Source: a virus | Virus record (IMG/VR): IMGVR_UViG_3300028902_000418 | Coordinates: 1-11,420 of that record | DNA length: 11,420 bases | Reading direction: 5' to 3' (one strand) | The notes under the pieces: generated by a model | What the model was told of the DNA's origin: nothing | The model's input: the letters and a program-made list of their open reading frames with translations, nothing else | Database searches by the model: none | Made by a program: the position numbers and the translations under genes | Part shown: piece after piece, positions 2,566 to 11,420 of the stretch | Layout of the letters: each line of letters opens with the position of its first letter | Position numbering within the stretch: position 1 is the stretch's first letter

Positions 2566-2922
2566 GTGTTAAACCTGGTCGAACGCTGCAAAGGAACGAT
2601 TTACGAGGGCCTAGCCCTGCACGAACGCCCGGCGCAGGGCGTTTCACCATTTCCATACCTGAGCCTGTCCGAGCTGATCGAACTCTGCTCGAAGCCCTAC
2701 CCGCCGTTTCAAGGCGGCCGCCCGGATCGCGCCCAGAAGGTGGGGGCCGCCCGCAGCGCCGAAGGCGCGAGGACGGCCCCCACCTCGGGCGGCCGGTCGG
2801 AAATAGCCGACCGCCAGCTAGGGTTATTCGACCCTGAAAAGCTTTACGTGCTAGTTACACGTAAAGTTAGTCTCACTCCTGAGACTTTTAAGACAATACC
2901 TGAGCGGGGGATAGGGTCATGA
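2566..2922 (+). CDS. Possible 118-aa hypothetical protein upstream of the replication gene (alternatively noncoding origin or leader region)
   Basis: GTG 2566 is preceded by AAGGGGGA. The mid-portion has GC-rich third positions, and the stop forms an ATGA overlap with the pII-like start at 2919. Against it: no recognisable domain, and the 3' third is occupied by four stem-loops. Confidence 0.3.
   Translation: MLNLVERCKGTIYEGLALHERPAQGVSPFPYLSLSELIELCSKPYPPFQGGRPDRAQKVGAARSAEGARTAPTSGGRSEIADRQLGLFDPEKLYVLVTRKVSLTPETFKTIPERGIGS
2738..2886 (+). other. Cluster of four consecutive stem-loops immediately upstream of the replication-initiator gene (candidate origin or packaging-signal region)
   Basis: (1) 12-bp stem 2738-2749 / 2774-2785 (AGGTGGGGGCCG/CGGCCCCCACCT) with a nested GCGCC-gaa-GGCGC. 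(2) CGGTCGG-aaatag-CCGACCG, 2794-2813. (3) CTTTACGTG-ctagtta-CACGTAAAG, 2842-2866. (4) AGTCTCA-ctcc-TGAGACT, 2869-2886. Confidence 0.6.
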
Positions 2923-3935
2923 AACCCTGTTCCCGCGTTCCGGTTTTTGTCGATTGGGTGACCATGCGGCAGGATCATGGCCAGGATGGCGCACCCATCA
3001 TTAACGGTGGCCAGGTCATCACGGTCGACTCGGATGGATCGGTCGACTACGTGGTGGAACGCCGTAGCGGCCTCGAAGGGTCGTTTGATTCCCGGTGTGA
3101 TGTCCGGTCGGATGGCTCCGTCGTGGAGTTCTCCGGAAATATCTCTCGCTTCAATCGACGTGACAACCTGTTCGGCTATGACTGGCCGGAAACCGTCCGC
3201 CGGATTAATTCCCTTCTGAACCTGTATTCGCTGCCGCCGTTCTCGGCCGGAAAGCTGTTCCGCTTCGCCGATGCGGGATGGACTTGGACAGGTGCCAGGG
3301 CGTCGCGGATTGACGTGACCATGAACCGGACGTGTTTTACAGAAGAGGGCGGCCAGGTCGTTCTAAAGGGATTGGCCGCGCAGCACGTCGGGCGGCAGAA
3401 AGGCGTTCTCTCGCCCGATGGCGCAACGGTGGCTTACGGCACCGGCAGCAAATACGTCTACGGAAAGGTCTACTCCAAATATGCCGAAATGCTGGCGCAT
3501 CGTCGGCGTCGCAGCGGTGCCCATGTCGATGATGAAGTCATCGAGTTTTGCCGGGCGCATGGGGTGTTGAGGGAAGAATTTACGCTGAAGTCACGTTTTC
3601 TGACTCAGCGGCAATGCGCGTATCTAGGGGCTATCGATCAGGACTATCTGACTAGCATTTTTCTGGAACGCACGCAGTTTAGGAGGTTCGAGCAAATGAA
3701 ACATGACAAATTCGACGATCTGCCGCGCCATCTTCGCGCGACGTATGTCTCGTGGCGCGATGGCTTGCCGCAAGGGATTAGCAGGGCGACCTTCTACAAG
3801 CATCGGACCAAGCTACTTGAATACGGCGTCGACATTTCGGTTCCGAATAATGTCCTTCGGATGCCGGTGAGGATTCGCACGGTCGATGTTGCCGCGCTGG
3901 AGGCTCCCGCCTGGTATCGCCAGCGGTACGGCTGA
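2919..3935 (+). CDS. Filamentous-phage replication initiation protein (pII-like rolling-circle initiator, 338 aa)
   Basis: First large gene of the rightward operon. N-terminal ...VPVFVDWVTMRQ... resembles the xDWxT start of gene II/CRI-type initiators. The C-terminal segment LRATYVSWRDGLPQGISRATFYKHRTKLLEYGVDIS resembles the phage-X-type tail. Synteny: it is immediately followed by the ssDNA-binding and coat genes. GGGGGA SD lies 7 nt upstream. Confidence 0.75.
   Translation: MKPCSRVPVFVDWVTMRQDHGQDGAPIINGGQVITVDSDGSVDYVVERRSGLEGSFDSRCDVRSDGSVVEFSGNISRFNRRDNLFGYDWPETVRRINSLLNLYSLPPFSAGKLFRFADAGWTWTGARASRIDVTMNRTCFTEEGGQVVLKGLAAQHVGRQKGVLSPDGATVAYGTGSKYVYGKVYSKYAEMLAHRRRRSGAHVDDEVIEFCRAHGVLREEFTLKSRFLTQRQCAYLGAIDQDYLTSIFLERTQFRRFEQMKHDKFDDLPRHLRATYVSWRDGLPQGISRATFYKHRTKLLEYGVDISVPNNVLRMPVRIRTVDVAALEAPAWYRQRYG
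3696..3935 (+). CDS. Candidate pX-like protein from an internal in-frame start within the replication gene (79 aa)
   Basis: AGGAGG (3681-3686), the best SD match I noticed in the window, lies 9 nt upstream of the in-frame ATG 3696 (3696-2919 = 777 = 3 x 259). This is analogous to Ff gene X nested in gene II. Confidence 0.45.
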   Translation: MKHDKFDDLPRHLRATYVSWRDGLPQGISRATFYKHRTKLLEYGVDISVPNNVLRMPVRIRTVDVAALEAPAWYRQRYG

Positions 3936-4000: not shown

Positions 4001-4312
4001 ATGGGTATCGAAAAAGTGAAAGTAACGGGCGTCAAGTTCTTCAAGGATTCCATTGACGGCAAGATGATCGACAGCGGCAAGGTGTTTATCGAGGAGGCGC
4101 TCGATTTCACCACCAAGCGGGCGAAGGGCTACGCAACGCAGGAATACAGCGTCGGCAGCGCCGAAGTCGCACAAGGGCTCATGCATAACGAGTTCCCGAT
4201 CATCGCCGAAGTTGAATTCCTGCGTGTGACCAATGGCGATGTTTCCAAGAATATCGTTACGTCGGTCCGTCCGGTCGAAAGCGGCGCGCCTCGCGGTAAG
4301 GCGGCTGCGTAA
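4001..4312 (+). CDS. Probable ssDNA-binding protein (pV-like, 103 aa)
   Basis: Size and position (between the replication gene and the coat genes) match inovirus gene V. Strong SD in the motif GGAGATTCAAA-ATG, which is shared with the major coat gene. The sequence itself is not recognisably assignable by eye. Confidence 0.55.
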   Translation: MGIEKVKVTGVKFFKDSIDGKMIDSGKVFIEEALDFTTKRAKGYATQEYSVGSAEVAQGLMHNEFPIIAEVEFLRVTNGDVSKNIVTSVRPVESGAPRGKAAA

Positions 4313-4476
4313 TGCGCTGGTCGCTGTCCTTCGAGTATGGCTCCAACCGTCAAGGTGTCAGCGGTGATGACGGTTTGGAGCCTGGCGGCCAGCCTGACGG
4401 CTCGTATTTCCTTTGGCTGTTCCTTTGTCTGCTCATCGCTAGCGGCATGGGGCCTGACGAAAAGGAAATTCTCTAA
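4312..4476 (+). CDS. Small hydrophobic protein, 54 aa (below the ORF-track cut-off); candidate minor virion or assembly protein
   Basis: MRWSLSFEYGSNRQGVSGDDGLEPGGQPDGSYFLWLFLCLLIASGMGPDEKEIL. TAATG stop-start overlaps at both ends (4310-4314 and 4474-4478). One predicted TM segment. Confidence 0.45.
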   Translation: MRWSLSFEYGSNRQGVSGDDGLEPGGQPDGSYFLWLFLCLLIASGMGPDEKEIL

Positions 4477-4826
4477 TGCCCTTCGCTTACGCCGGTCACT
4501 GCTACGCCACTGCCGGCGAAGCGTTAAAGGCATTCCAAAAAACCTTCCCGATTCTCGGGGATACGACGTGGCAATGGCATACGTCCTCAAGCATCAATGC
4601 GTCGGGGTTGATCACCTACAACCTGAACACCAAGCCGACCACCACGAACACGGTGTCGGCCAGGACGGGAACGATGCAGCTTGCGAGCTGCGCAACGCCC
4701 GATGCAGCGGTCTTTGATCCGGTGGCAGCGGGGGGCGTATTCGCCTTCTTCTTCCTTGGCGTGGCTGGCACCTGGTATCTCGCGCAAAACCTCGGCTTGA
4801 TTCTCGAAGCCGTCAAGAAGTGGTAA
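4476..4826 (+). CDS. Hypothetical membrane-anchored protein, 116 aa (C-terminal TM); possible minor coat or assembly protein
   Basis: ORF track. SD AAAAGGAAA upstream. C-terminal hydrophobic helix GGVFAFFFLGVAGTWYLAQNLGLIL. Located just upstream of the major coat gene. Confidence 0.6.
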   Translation: MPFAYAGHCYATAGEALKAFQKTFPILGDTTWQWHTSSSINASGLITYNLNTKPTTTNTVSARTGTMQLASCATPDAAVFDPVAAGGVFAFFFLGVAGTWYLAQNLGLILEAVKKW

Positions 4827-4891: not shown

Positions 4892-5131
4892 ATGAAACTG
4901 CAATTTCGTTCGCTGCGCAATCGCACCATCGGCCAAGCCGGTGTTGTCGCCTCCGCCACCATCCTGGCTCAACAGGCGATGGCTGCCGGTCCCGACCTCT
5001 CGACCGTGACCGCTGCTGTCGACTTCGGCACCGTTACCACTGCCGTGCTCGGCGTGGCGGCGGCGCTGATCGTCGTCTACATCGCCTGGAAGGGCGCCAA
5101 GATGGTGATTGCTGCGGTTAAGGGCGGCTAA
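4892..5131 (+). CDS. Major coat protein (pVIII-like), 79-aa precursor with signal peptide
   Basis: MKLQFRSLRNRTIGQAGVVASATILAQQAMA / AGPDLSTVTAAVDFGTVTTAVLGVAAALIVVYIAWKGAKMVIAAVKGG. It has an Ala-x-Ala cleavage site and a 48-aa mature peptide with an acidic N-terminus, hydrophobic core and Lys-rich C-terminus, which is the classic inovirus coat layout. Strong SD GGGAGA; terminator directly downstream. Confidence 0.9.
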   Translation: MKLQFRSLRNRTIGQAGVVASATILAQQAMAAGPDLSTVTAAVDFGTVTTAVLGVAAALIVVYIAWKGAKMVIAAVKGG

Positions 5132-5146
5132 TCATCGATGCCGTTT

Positions 5147-5182
5147 AAGGGGAGGGGATGTGCACGTCCTCTCCCTTTATTT
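5147..5182 (+). terminator. Rho-independent terminator or attenuator after the major coat gene
   Basis: AAGGGGAGGGGA-tgtgcacg-TCCTCTCCCTTT: 12-bp stem (two G-U pairs) followed by TTTATTT. This matches the placement of the post-gene-VIII terminator in Ff phages. Confidence 0.75.
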
Positions 5183-5203
5183 CGCAAGCGAAAGGGGAAC
5201 ATC

Positions 5204-5527
5204 ATGGCGGGACCTGACTTGTCGGTGATAACAGCGGTGGTTGATTTTGGAAGCGTAGTCGGTGCGGTTTTAGGCGTCGCGGCGGCGTTGATTGTGGCGT
5301 TCGTCGCACAGAAAGGGGCGCGCATGGTTCTTGATGCGGTGCGCGGTGGATCGATGGTAAGCCCGGAACGGTATTACGTTGGTAATGATGGGGAGTCGTG
5401 GACCGAAACCGGTTTACAAGATGCTTGGAATTCGATGGATCATGCAGAGCAAAACGCGTGGGGTAGTTCAAGCAACTTCCTTGAGAATTTCACGGAAGTG
5501 GATAAGAACGGCCGAGTTCTTAAATGA
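5204..5527 (+). CDS. Coat-protein paralog lacking a signal peptide, with a 58-aa acidic Trp-rich C-terminal extension (107 aa)
   Basis: M-AGPDLSVITAVVDFGSVVGAVLGVAAALIVAFVAQKGARMVLDAVRGG aligns without gaps to the mature coat protein (34/48 identical). It begins exactly at the predicted cleavage site. SD AAAGGGGAA lies 5 nt upstream of ATG 5204. The track start at 5138 would read through the terminator hairpin. Confidence 0.7.
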   Translation: MAGPDLSVITAVVDFGSVVGAVLGVAAALIVAFVAQKGARMVLDAVRGGSMVSPERYYVGNDGESWTETGLQDAWNSMDHAEQNAWGSSSNFLENFTEVDKNGRVLK

Positions 5528-5613
5528 ACACAGTTGACGCCTGGTATCTCGTCTTTGCCCTCTATGGCCTTATGGCGTCCTGGGCAATGATCAAAGGTCT
5601 GAGTGATGACTAA
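5524..5613 (+). CDS. Very small hydrophobic protein, 29 aa (pVII/pIX-like size class)
   Basis: MNTVDAWYLVFALYGLMASWAMIKGLSDD. ATGA overlap with the upstream stop (5524-5527), and its stop overlaps the pIII-like start. Below the ORF-track threshold. Confidence 0.4.
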   Translation: MNTVDAWYLVFALYGLMASWAMIKGLSDD

Positions 5614-7818: not shown

Positions 7819-7965
7819 GTGCTGGAGGAATTCAGGGAGGCGCTGGAAGTAGCGTCTAACATCGGCTTTGTTCTTGGCCTGACGGTGGGGATGGGCTTGG
7901 GTGCCTCGCTCGGTTTTGTACTCGGCTTCCGAATTGGGCAGGGGCGGGACGATCATGTCGATTAA
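7819..7965 (+). CDS. Small membrane protein, 48 aa (below the ORF-track cut-off)
   Basis: AGGAG 5 nt upstream of GTG 7819. MLEEFREALEVASNIGFVLGLTVGMGLGASLGFVLGFRIGQGRDDHVD has one Gly-rich TM. It overlaps the pI-like start by 11 nt. Confidence 0.35.
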   Translation: MLEEFREALEVASNIGFVLGLTVGMGLGASLGFVLGFRIGQGRDDHVD

Positions 7966-9034
7966 GTCCTATGTCGGCCGGATGGGGTCCGGCAAGACTT
8001 ACGAGGTAGTCGCGTCGGTTATCGTTCCGGCGCTCGCACGTGGCCGCCGTGTCGTGTCGAACATCGCCGGCCTAGATCTTGACGAGATTCGCGGGCTACT
8101 GGTCGAACAGGGCGTTCCGTTCGAGAAGATCGGGGTGCTTGTCCTGGTCAATCACGCGGATGTGCTGCTGCCGGAATTCTGGCGCACGGACAAGGATCAG
8201 GCCGAAGGCTTTGACAGTTTCATCCAGCCCGGTGACTTGGTGGCGCTCGATGAAATTTGGCGTTTCTGGGAAGGCTTCGCCAATCGCAAGATGCCTGATC
8301 GGGTGATGAACTTTTTCCGGATGCATCGGCATTTTACGCATCCGGAAACTGGCGTCGCCTGTGACGTGGCGCTAATCACGCAGGACGTGATGGACATCAG
8401 CCGTAAGGTTCGCGCCGTAGTCGAAGAAACCTACGGCATGGAGAAGTTGACGGCCATCGGCAGCACCAAGCGTTACCGCGTCGACGTCTTTCAGGGAACG
8501 AGGACCACGCGCCGACCCTTGCGCCAGCTCCAACGCGAATACGACCCGCGCTATTTCCCGTTGTACTCGTCCCATAGTCAGAAGAAGGAAGGGGACGCGG
8601 ACGCCGTAGAAGAAAACATAGACAGTCGGGGCAACATCCTTAAGGGCGCATTGTTCAAGATCGTGCTTCCGCTCGGTGCGTTGGCGATGGCTGGTGCGGT
8701 CTGGCTGGTGTGGGGCTTCTTCCACCCCGTACAGAAGCCGGCAGCGGCGCAGCTCGATGCCAAGGGCAAGCCCGTAGCGGCTGGCGCCGCGGCGTCGGCT
8801 TCGCAAGCGAAAACATCCCCCGATGTGTCGTCAGAATGGAGAGCGGCCGGCTTCGTGCTTGATTCGTCCGGGTCGTCTGTTGTGCTGGTGGATGGCCGGC
8901 GTGTTCGGGTAGTTCAAAATCCGCCTGGCTTGCGAATCACGCTAGGGTCGGTCGAAATGATTCTCCCGAGTGGTGAGGCCGTGACTTCCTGGGGCGGTCA
9001 TCAGTCGTCCGGGTTGCTTCCGGGGGCGAAATGA
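7955..9034 (+). CDS. pI / Zot-family assembly ATPase (359 aa)
   Basis: MSIKSYVGRMGSGKTYEVV places a Walker A (GxxGSGKT) within the first 15 residues, as in Zot/pI. DEIW is a Walker-B-like motif. There is a central TM (IVLPLGALAMAGAVWLVWGFF) and a periplasmic C-terminal domain. ATG 7955 with a G-rich SD is preferred over the track's GTG 7901. Confidence 0.9.
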   Translation: MSIKSYVGRMGSGKTYEVVASVIVPALARGRRVVSNIAGLDLDEIRGLLVEQGVPFEKIGVLVLVNHADVLLPEFWRTDKDQAEGFDSFIQPGDLVALDEIWRFWEGFANRKMPDRVMNFFRMHRHFTHPETGVACDVALITQDVMDISRKVRAVVEETYGMEKLTAIGSTKRYRVDVFQGTRTTRRPLRQLQREYDPRYFPLYSSHSQKKEGDADAVEENIDSRGNILKGALFKIVLPLGALAMAGAVWLVWGFFHPVQKPAAAQLDAKGKPVAAGAAASASQAKTSPDVSSEWRAAGFVLDSSGSSVVLVDGRRVRVVQNPPGLRITLGSVEMILPSGEAVTSWGGHQSSGLLPGAK

Positions 9035-10278
9035 AGCGCCTGGCGTTCGTGCTGGCGTTGCTGGTGTCTTTGATGGCGCACGGTGAAACCGTGTCCGTGT
9101 CCTTGTCCGAAGTGCGGCTTGTTGATCTGGTGTCTGTGGTCTTTGGGCAGATCAGCAAAGAACCCTATGTTCTGGGGTCGGAGGTCTTGGCTGCCGAGGA
9201 ACGGTACACGCTCGATCTTCGGAATGTCCCGGTGTCTCAAGTCGTAGCGTCGGTCACTGCACTAGCGCAGTCGGCCGGCTTCGAGGTCGAACGGCGCGGG
9301 GGTGTGGTGCGGATCGGCAAGGCGGCCGAGGCGGTAGAGGAATCGATCGTGTACCGGCCGCGTTATCGTTCGGCGCGCTACCTGGCTGACGTGGTGCAGA
9401 GTGTGACCGGGGCGCGTTCGGTGCTGGCACGGTCGCTGCGCAAATCGGAAGATTTGCAGGGAGCAAGGCCCGCAATGGCGGGGCAGGGCGGCCAGATCGC
9501 GCCGGCACAGGTCCAAGGCAGTCCGTCGAGTGTTGAAGGGCAGATAGACCGCAGCGAGGTCGACCAGATCGCGTTTAGCGTGGTTCCGAAGGATGCGGTC
9601 AAGGTCCGCAAGCTCTTGGCCGACTTGGACACGCCGACCGCCGAAATTGTCCTCAAGGCGGTCGTGTACGAGGTCGGCGTTAATCGTGCCGATGGATCGG
9701 CGGTGCAGTTGGCCGTTCACGTCGCTGGCTTGTCCGGCGTGCTGGCCGGAAATGTCCTTTCCGGCGCATCCTTGAAGTTCTCCAGCGGTGGCATAGAGGC
9801 TGTCTTATCGGCCCTGGATGCCGATTCTCGGTTTAAGTCCATCTCTCGGCCTCAGCTGAGGGTTAAAAACGGCGTGCAGGCCCGTTTTAGCGTCGGGCAG
9901 GATGTGCCCGTTGTGGGCCAGGTGCAGGTCGACAAGAACGGCAACCCGGTGAGTTCGGTTGAATACAAGCAAAGCGGGGTGATTCTTACCGCAACGCCTG
10001 AGATTCGCCAGGACGTTATTGAACTGGTCTTGAATCAGGAACTGAGTAATTTCGTCTTGACCAAGACCGGCGTTAACAACTCGCCGACGCTTATTAAGCG
10101 GTCGGTCAATACTCGGTTGCAGCTCGTGCCTGGTGAAGTGGTCATGCTGGCCGGCCTCGAAGATGAAACAGAGGACGAGTCGACTAGCCGGGTTCCGTTC
10201 CTGGGCTGGCTGGTTGGCCAGGATCGAACGCGCAAGCGTTCTGAAATCCTTGTCTTTATCGAGGCCGTGAAAATTTGA
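9031..10278 (+). CDS. pIV-like secretin (outer-membrane export channel, 415 aa)
   Basis: Signal peptide MKRLAFVLALLVSLMAHG. The C-terminal secretin core is recognisable (SRPQLRVKNGVQARFSVGQDVPVVG...YKQSGVILTATPEI...TRLQLVPGEVVMLAGL...SRVPFLGWL). ATGA overlap with the pI-like stop. Confidence 0.85.
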   Translation: MKRLAFVLALLVSLMAHGETVSVSLSEVRLVDLVSVVFGQISKEPYVLGSEVLAAEERYTLDLRNVPVSQVVASVTALAQSAGFEVERRGGVVRIGKAAEAVEESIVYRPRYRSARYLADVVQSVTGARSVLARSLRKSEDLQGARPAMAGQGGQIAPAQVQGSPSSVEGQIDRSEVDQIAFSVVPKDAVKVRKLLADLDTPTAEIVLKAVVYEVGVNRADGSAVQLAVHVAGLSGVLAGNVLSGASLKFSSGGIEAVLSALDADSRFKSISRPQLRVKNGVQARFSVGQDVPVVGQVQVDKNGNPVSSVEYKQSGVILTATPEIRQDVIELVLNQELSNFVLTKTGVNNSPTLIKRSVNTRLQLVPGEVVMLAGLEDETEDESTSRVPFLGWLVGQDRTRKRSEILVFIEAVKI

Positions 10279-10674: not shown

Positions 10675-10713
10675 AAAGCGATACACGATTGCTTTCCGAT
10701 CGCGTATCGCTTT
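10675..10713. terminator. Copy B of the 36-bp repeat; a 15-bp-stem hairpin between convergent operons (candidate bidirectional terminator)
   Basis: AAAGCGATACACGAT-tgctttccg-ATCGCGTATCGCTTT (one A/C mismatch). It is flanked by AAA and TTT. It lies 15 nt after the + strand stop (10660) and 12 nt after the - strand stop (10725). Confidence 0.65.
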
Positions 10714-10970: not shown

Positions 10971-11420
10971 ACCTGGTGTCCCATCTTCACCAGTGCGGCC
11001 GTCCGGTTGGCGTCCTCGATGTGGTTTAGAAATGTTTTAAATGCGGTGTTGTCGCCAAGTTCCTTGATGTTTCCGAGTCGCAGCAGGACATCGATCAGCA
11101 TCATGCCGTTGTTCAAAGCCGGTGCCCATTGCGCCAGGGTCATGCCGGCCAGTTCGGCGCAACGCTCTCGAACGTGCTTGATCAACGCCGCCTTCTGCTC
11201 GGCCTTGAGCGTGTCATACCACTTGGCCGCAACGTCCTTTTCTTCGCACGGCTCATAGATCATGTCGTCAAGCTTCGACCAAGCCCAGGTAACGAACGGC
11301 TTACCGTGTCCCTCGGTCCGTTCCTTGTGGGCCTTGCTCTCGGCCGCTAGTTTCTGCTGCTGCGCCTCAATGTCCTGCAACGTGGCCGGCTTGGTTGGTG
11401 CCTTCGCCTTAAGCTCGGCC
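10967..11420 (-). CDS. ParB/Srx-family protein, C-terminal 3' part (same gene as 1..794; bases 11280-11420 duplicate 1-141)
   Basis: The frame of track ORF 10967..11380 stays open to the window end and is in phase with the 1..794 segment across the junction (794 + 313 nt = 369 codons). The C-terminal region ...SKLDDMIYEPCEEKDVAAKWYDTLKAEQKAALIKHVRERCAELAGMTLAQWAPALNNGMMLIDVLLRLGNIKELGDNTAFKTFLNHIEDANRTAALVKMGHQV has no recognisable family. Confidence 0.85.
   Translation of the reverse strand, partial: AELKAKAPTKPATLQDIEAQQQKLAAESKAHKERTEGHGKPFVTWAWSKLDDMIYEPCEEKDVAAKWYDTLKAEQKAALIKHVRERCAELAGMTLAQWAPALNNGMMLIDVLLRLGNIKELGDNTAFKTFLNHIEDANRTAALVKMGHQV
11280..11420. repeat. Terminal overlap copy 2, identical to 1-141
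   Basis: Same as copy 1. The reading frame of the minus-strand ParB-like ORF is continuous when 11279 is joined to 1. Confidence 0.97.

Follow-up and report, generated by a model that had tools for sequence, protein, structure and literature searches.

An uncultured filamentous phage carries, behind its major coat gene, a second gene that encodes a leaderless copy of the mature coat domain prolonged by a C-terminal tail. The observation is confirmed here and extended to a conserved gene family, which is real and previously undescribed in the literature searched and whose products have a putative role in the particle or in assembly. Our favoured reading, held at a probability of about 0.5, is that the paralog is a low-copy minor virion or assembly subunit that enters the membrane in the manner of the Pf3 coat protein.

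In the window (the whole stretch of DNA analysed, 11,420 nt), positions 1-141 are repeated directly and with 100% identity at 11280-11420, giving a complete circular genome of 11,279 nt. Pfam searches returned the inovirus markers Phage_CRI, DUF2523, Zot and Secretin (Table 1). Judged from its sequence, the window is a circular inovirus of ~11.3 kb belonging to an uncultured clade. Related prophages were found in MAGs of Rhodocyclaceae, Sulfuritalea, Zoogloeaceae and unclassified Proteobacteria, and the host group of this filamentous phage is Rhodocyclales-type bacteria. Against deposited phage genomes, the coat and the paralog gave no DNA match and no tblastn match, and the nearest Zot match was ~34% identical; by these comparisons the window phage has no characterised close relative among them.

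Table 1. Coordinates of the window features considered in this work.
Feature	Position	Strand	Remarks
g2p replication protein	2919-3935		Pfam Phage_CRI and G2P_X_C
ssb-like gene	4001-4312		phrog_4994
orf116	4476-4826	+	Upstream neighbour of the coat gene; coat-like C-terminal helix
Major coat gene, 79 aa	4892-5131	+	phrog_2186, E 1.8e-15
GC-rich hairpin, 15 bp, UGCA loop	5146-5179	+	Right behind the coat stop, followed by UUU
Shine-Dalgarno-like sequence AAAGGGGAA	5191-5199	+	4-5 nt before the ATG at 5204
Coat paralog ORF, 107 aa	5204-5527	+	Present as described in the original prediction
Paralog core: Met and 48-aa coat-like domain	5204-5350	+	34/48 identical to the mature coat
Paralog C-terminal extension, 58 aa and stop	5351-5527	+	Acidic, aromatic-rich; predicted small α/β domain
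orf29, 29 aa, hydrophobic, leaderless	5524-5613	+	pVII/pIX-like by size and position; conserved in all relatives
g3p-like minor coat/adsorption protein, 479 aa	5603-7042	+	Overlaps the end of orf29; C-terminal matches to phrog_3942 and phrog_7187
g6p-like minor coat protein, 96 aa	7044-7334	+	Pfam DUF2523, E 3.9e-6; phrog_974, E 7.8e-18
Zot/g1p	7901-9034		Pfam Zot
Secretin/g4p	9031-10278		Pfam Secretin

Some features of the genome outside the coat region can be mentioned here. A 39-nt imperfect palindrome (AAAGCGATAC...GTATCGCTTT) occurs at 1601-1639 and 10675-10713, the copies being 85% identical; one is separated by ~280 nt from a minus-strand HTH repressor-like gene (1917-2429), and the other follows closely behind orf126. 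These copies may be operator or recombination sites. Related loci, given L numbers, have the structural module in common; L020 (6023-6967) and L024 (560-1717) carry Rep_trans and the window carries Phage_CRI, and between the window and L001 the ssb-like genes are unrelated. As far as these sequences tell, the replication module is swapped among relatives. The orf116 product consists of an 80-aa N-terminal domain followed by the coat-like helix DPVAAGGVFAFFFLGVAGTWYLAQNLGLILEAVKKW, with no obvious leader; its homologue in L005 (3435-3611) has only 58 aa and a signal peptide. By sequence, orf116 seems to be a further minor protein of coat-like type, its extension lying at the end opposite to that of the paralog.

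The signal peptide of the major coat (4892-4984) ends in AMA and precedes the mature 48-aa domain (4985-5128, AGPDLS...AAVKGG). A profile search yielded 406 coat-family proteins, and the best 120 of these were analysed. They comprised 100 proteins with a leader, ending at the 48th mature residue, and 20 that were leaderless and tailed; mixed forms were absent. In the 100 ordinary coats among the best 120, the tail length was 0 aa throughout, residue -1 of the signal-peptidase site was Ala in 99 clusters, residue -3 was A, V, S or T in all 100, and conservation began exactly at +1 with [AVL]GPDL. The 20 paralogs, 82-107 aa long, start with MAGPDLS (MAAPDFS in one), have tails of 33-58 aa, and none has a signal peptide.

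As predicted, the first part of the window paralog is a copy of the mature coat: BLASTP aligned its residues 2-49 with coat residues 32-79 without gaps (41/48 positives, E 2e-21), and phrog_2186 matched residues 2-48 as well (E 6.4e-10). The proposed fusion of the Met to the cleavage site also holds, in every member of the family. The ORF begins with its Met at residue -1 of the predicted signal-peptidase site, and there is no cleavable signal peptide ending in AxA. Both the hydrophobic helix and the basic segment QKGARMVLDAVRGG that were said to be retained are present in the core, in which a 15-residue N-tail with two acidic residues (D5, D14) leads into a hydrophobic span at ~16-36 and a C-flank with K37, R40 and R47. 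All positions invariant in the 100 coats are kept (P3, D4, D13, F14, A20, K36 and G37, numbered from the mature coat N-terminus). The paralog runs 58 residues past the basic DNA-facing segment, the mature length in the coat family being ~48 aa. It lies downstream of the hairpin, and the noted shift to A/T-ending codons is borne out by GC3 values of 0.83 in the mature coat, 0.58 in the paralog core and 0.50 in the tail. Taken by its sequence, the paralog is thus a coat-family protein by descent, yet it departs from that family in leader, C-terminal end point and expression signature.

All relatives, whether or not they have a paralog, show an equivalent hairpin behind the coat stop. In the window, the 78-nt region 5129-5206 folds with -29 kcal/mol (z -3.5), and the hairpin ends in a short U run. 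The original prediction called this element the coat-gene terminator. The strong 15-bp hairpin and the U run are indeed there, but the element was not among the calls of a consensus terminator scan; judged by its likeness to the terminator of Ff gene VIII, it is probably terminator- or attenuator-like. The palindromic apex GUGCAC around the loop (window 5161-5164) is kept in the window, L001, L012, L013 and L017 despite differing stems, a conservation beyond what a simple terminator would need.

An SD sequence of AAGGGG type (AAGGAG in L024, TTGGGGG in L016) stands at constant distance before the paralog in the nine genomes with upstream sequence. At the other end of the gene, the orf29 ATG of the window overlaps the paralog stop (ATGA). 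In 9 of 10 genomes with the paralog, its stop either overlaps the orf29 start (ATGA, GTGA, TTGA, TAATG) or directly adjoins it; 4 of those 9 use TTG or GTG as the orf29 start codon and lack a separate SD for it. In relatives lacking the paralog, an orf29 with an ATG start comes immediately after that same hairpin and SD. Because of the stop-start overlap, the SD-less TTG/GTG starts and the paralog-less layout, orf29 translation most likely depends on that of the paralog, which suggests termination-reinitiation coupling. Judged by selection, SD and coupling to orf29, the paralog ORF appears to be a real, translated gene. The GTG/TTG starts of orf29 were located at L012 8489, L017 3642, near L020 8246 and near L024 3286.

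With an upstream in-frame ATG at 5138 as its start, the ORF would code for 129 aa. This start was rejected: it lies before the hairpin, is absent in the L001 orthologue and is used by no family member (n = 20). A cryptic leader from the same ATG was discarded as well, the 22 extra residues MPFKGRGCARPLPLFRKRKGNI being too weakly hydrophobic for a signal peptide.

Synonymous sites have diverged to saturation between the coat and the paralog core (pS 0.75, pN 0.23). Comparisons between genomes give omega values of 0.05-0.12 (coat), about 0.1-0.21 (paralog core) and 0.25-0.36 (tail); against the L001 orthologue the tail value is 0.25. The codon-usage difference recurs in 9 of 9 genomes, with GC3 of 0.73-0.88 in the coat and of 0.46-0.67, similar to g3p, in the paralog core. 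From these figures the paralog's codon usage looks like that of a minor, lowly expressed protein and not like that of the coat. The view that the copy is an old, selected duplicate is upheld by the saturated synonymous sites, dN/dS well below 1 and orthologues in at least 20 clusters. An assembly artefact is rejected, the same architecture occurring in at least 20 clusters with conserved synteny in at least 10 contigs.

At first, a word-indexed search turned up a single homologue, the 91-aa P0002, encoded on two NCBI metagenome contigs where coat, paralog, orf29 and g3p again follow one another in this order. When viral, genome and metagenome collections were scanned, further paralogs appeared in L012, L013, L016/L019 and L017/L018. 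The survey for tandem coat paralogs with extensions, proposed originally as a check, yielded orthologues in 20 or more clusters, and on 10 or more contigs the synteny was conserved. The order coat, hairpin, SD, paralog, orf29, g3p was seen in the window, L001/L002, L012, L013, L016/L019, L017/L018, L020-22, L024 and L025; the L023 contig begins at the paralog, and the visible order there is paralog, orf29, g3p. One syntenic contig among L020-22, L023, L024 and L025 is a prophage in a 240-kb contig, with Rep_trans instead of Phage_CRI. The 24-kb contig Ga0255338_1002728 holds identical coat-paralog regions, L017 and L018, ~11.9 kb apart, which reflects prophages in tandem or else a circular genome assembled as a concatemer. 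It had also been asked whether extended paralogs are a documented routine feature of the group. They recur in this uncultured clade, but no description of tandem or duplicated coat genes with tails in inoviruses was found in the literature searched. A large inovirus survey classed structural candidates only by size and transmembrane content (PMC6813254).

The distribution of the paralog is patchy. Paralog-less genomes (L003, L004, L005, L010 and L015) have orf116, coat, orf29 and g3p, and in close paralog-less relatives coat, orf29 and g3p are near-identical to those of paralog-bearing genomes. Likewise, the coat tree places each paralog-bearing genome with a close paralog-less relative, for example L017 with L010 (44/48) and L016 with L004. 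Since close relatives lack it, the paralog is an accessory gene and cannot be an essential part of the virion. The C-terminal region of the g3p-like protein is conserved across relatives. Paralog cores other than that of L012 cluster together (79% bootstrap), and the L012 core groups with coats. The tree, L012 standing apart, implies one origin of the paralogs and then repeated loss or transfer. The placement of the L012 core suggests gene conversion or a second event, and with a dS of 0.5 it has probably been homogenised with its own coat. In the alignment of one paralog-bearing genome to one lacking the gene, the 3' ends of coat and paralog align with each other and the deletion boundaries are ambiguous.

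The tail is acidic and Trp-rich as predicted, with 10 D/E against 4 K/R (net -6) and 7 aromatic residues including 3 Trp. Among the 20 tails from the best 120 coat-family proteins, 17 are acidic on balance, and every one of them is rich in W, Y and F. They form several barely alignable classes and singletons with few common columns, an aromatic/acidic motif among them. Class A, carried by both the window and L001, reads VGNDG..YT.R.LD.IW..MD..E..WGF.SK.DF and class B reads YSYSEY.RDNRAAGLPVLS..EF. The tail thus diverges into classes while the coat stays ~90% identical. Compared by eye, tail class showed no co-variation with phage ssb, g3p or replication modules; the window and L001, with their common class A tail, have unrelated ssb-like genes. 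The bacterial SSB C-terminal tip, DDDIPF, is conserved and recruits many DNA-metabolism proteins. Class B tails of P0009, P0010 and P0014 end in ...NDIPF or ...EEHPF (L017 3397-3645, L020 8001-8249), which we take to resemble this tip; the window tail does not end in DIPF or EHPF.

The proposed structure prediction of the extension was performed with AF2. With the 20-member alignment, the paralog had a mean pLDDT of 78, with a helix at 6-46 and a less confident linker (block means 66-69 over 41-60). The tail was modelled as a β-hairpin (57-67), helices at 68-77, 80-86 and 89-94, and a strand at 97-99, with pLDDT 82-87 over 61-100. A two-sequence run gave the same topology at lower confidence. 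The tail is therefore predicted to be a small folded α/β domain. Searched alone against 1.84 billion representatives, the 58-aa tail found only the protein itself; Pfam and PHROGs matches were confined to the coat part. Foldseek with two AF2 models gave no match in PDB and BFVD at E <=0.001. A profile of the 20 paralogs gave no coat match among PDB sequences at E up to 10, and the Pfam search hit no coat family. Clustering of paralog-specific substitutions on one helix face was not significant at 100 degrees (p 0.15) and only borderline, uncorrected, at 95 degrees.

Comparison with known systems frames the possible function. With the inovirus major coat (phrog_2186, g8p/pVIII-type), the paralog shares homology over the whole 48-aa mature domain, with its acidic N-tail, hydrophobic helix, basic C-flank and predicted mature N-terminus. 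Unlike that coat, it has no signal peptide, carries a C-terminal tail of 33-58 aa predicted to be folded, lies behind the coat hairpin with minor-protein codon usage, evolves 2-4 times faster and is absent from close relatives.

The Pf3 coat is leaderless and 44 aa long. It is inserted N-out by YidC, flanking charges setting the orientation, and its 18-residue N-tail is translocated (PMC3602594). The features of this type are found in the paralog: no leader, a short acidic N-tail (15 residues with 2 Asp, against 18 in Pf3), a single span and a positive C-flank. From its leaderless state, acidic N-tail and positive C-flank, the same topology and insertion route are predicted for the paralog as for the Pf3 coat (PMC3602594). 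The likeness lies in predicted biogenesis, no sequence relationship being detectable; moreover, the Pf3 coat is a sole major coat and has no C-terminal domain.

In f1, pVII and pIX each form a single helix, have no leader and lie alongside pVIII in the first layers of the round tip (PMC10175506). The paralog resembles Ff pVII/pIX as a leaderless helix encoded in the structural module and, as we infer, made at a low level. The 29-aa orf29 product, to which the paralog is coupled, has the size of pVII/pIX. These have ~32 aa and basic ends that touch the DNA hairpin, whereas the paralogs have 82-107 aa and an acidic end domain, show no sequence similarity to them and are dispensable in their own clade. 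Measured against a ~30-aa helix with a basic C-terminus on the packaging hairpin (PMC10175506), the window paralog, with 107 aa and an acidic domain, is not of this type and is about three times longer.

Engineered C-terminal display on M13 P8 offers a further comparison. There, too, a coat subunit bears a C-terminal polypeptide, and it is made beside an excess of wild-type coat, giving mosaic particles; the differences are that the system is artificial, that the P8 leader is kept and that the peptides are usually short (PMC6100724).

The paralog gene goes back to a duplication that took in the mature portion of the coat gene. Methionine aminopeptidase has an established specificity for removing a Met that precedes Ala. 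According to the favoured reading, the product would thereby acquire the N-terminus AGPDLS, the same as that of the processed coat. It would insert N-out/C-in, its short acidic N-tail being translocated by a YidC-type route and one helix spanning the membrane, and the basic flank and tail would stay in the cytoplasm. There the tail would fold, as N-tail, single span and positive C-flank match the N-out/C-in rules of Pf3. The protein would be made at the low level of minor proteins, which is probable because the gene lies downstream of the coat hairpin, and it would be translationally coupled to the 29-aa tip-like protein. Since all invariant coat positions are kept, it may pack with coat subunits, either where assembly takes place or at one filament end. 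While the phage is being assembled, the tail domain would point into the cytoplasm; in the finished particle it would lie towards the lumen or the trailing end.

The AF2 model, with its long helix and confident small domain, fits this structural reading. In f1 cryo-EM, coat-type helices point their C-termini to the DNA and to the trailing pIII/pVI end (PMC10175506), so that end positions are conceivable for a tailed subunit. The original prediction held a C-terminal appendage to be incompatible with capsid packing. That part was overstated: C-terminal M13 P8 fusions are displayed in mosaic with wild-type P8 (Fuh 2000 and Held & Sidhu 2004, as cited and used in PMC6100724), and as such fusions are tolerated in mosaic virions, low-copy incorporation of a tailed subunit is possible. 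A difficulty for the favoured reading is the placing of a net -6 domain in the lumen. The C-termini of f1 pVII, pIX and pVIII are basic and face the DNA (PMC10175506), and by analogy a folded acidic domain is hard to fit into such a basic, DNA-holding lumen. Three further points weigh against a structural role: by genome comparison the gene is dispensable within the clade, the fast tail divergence without co-variation appears to fit a host target at least as well, and the paralog-specific substitutions show no significant helical periodicity. We consider doubtful, and advance only tentatively, the stronger proposal that the paralogs are an unrecognised class of minor capsid protein derived from the major coat, leaderless, present in few copies at one end or as a mosaic, and exporting a domain folded in the cytoplasm.

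The main rival to a virion or assembly subunit is a membrane-anchored effector that stays out of the virion. The coat helix would then be an N-out inner-membrane anchor and the acidic cytoplasmic domain would bind a host or competitor factor, with superinfection exclusion, interference with co-resident inoviruses or capture of host proteins (e.g. a partner of the SSB C-terminal tail) as possible effects. We regard such an effector as possible, because the gene is dispensable, the acidic tail would face a basic lumen and no co-variation was seen with phage ssb, g3p or replication modules. Its accessory, patchy occurrence among close relatives and the split of the tail into several classes beside a coat that is ~90% identical agree with it, as do the three class B tails ending in DIPF or EHPF, presumably SSB-tip-like. 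There is also a precedent in the Pf structural module, where small inner-membrane proteins act in exclusion (PfsE). However, a mere anchor would need neither the invariant coat positions, including the N-terminal AGPDLS..VDF exposed on the virion surface, nor the exact mature N-terminus, nor tight coupling to orf29 inside the structural operon, and no homologous exclusion protein is known.

The coat-like core, sufficient to enter the lattice, raises another alternative, namely that the tailed copy co-assembles and poisons or terminates filament growth, as a built-in brake that tunes virion output or length in chronic infection. The low expression implied by position and codon usage, and a bulky acidic C-terminus where f1 coats contact DNA (PMC10175506), would suit a brake. 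It is nevertheless unlikely: a folded, selected domain (pLDDT 82-87, omega 0.25-0.36) would not be needed for it, the dependence of orf29 ties the paralog to the making of a needed tip protein and not to inhibition, and engineered C-terminal P8 fusions leave assembly unblocked (PMC6100724). Finally, a non-functional duplication remnant, a mis-called ORF or a true start at ATG 5138 with a cryptic leader, for which the existence of that in-frame ATG and the single homologue of the first search could be cited, is very improbable, and non-function is by sequence close to excluded, given a start and architecture common to 20 clusters, dN/dS well below 1 in core and tail, a conserved SD, the coupling to orf29, and the position of ATG 5138 before the hairpin, its absence in L001 and its lack of a signal peptide.

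On the usual view, a filamentous phage makes its wall out of a single coat protein and adds a few small, unrelated tip proteins. If the paralog enters the particle, minor capsid proteins can arise by duplication of the major coat, and a domain folded in the cytoplasm can leave the cell through the assembly machine; the paralog would then be a natural scaffold for C-terminal display, the natural counterpart of P8 display. Should the minor-capsid reading be true, it would also be a living intermediate for the evolution of leaderless pVII/pIX from pVIII. If instead it remains membrane-bound, the paralog would represent a novel type of phage effector built on a coat anchor. Either way, the coat and its paralog are a natural experiment in which the same mature membrane protein is delivered with and without a leader.
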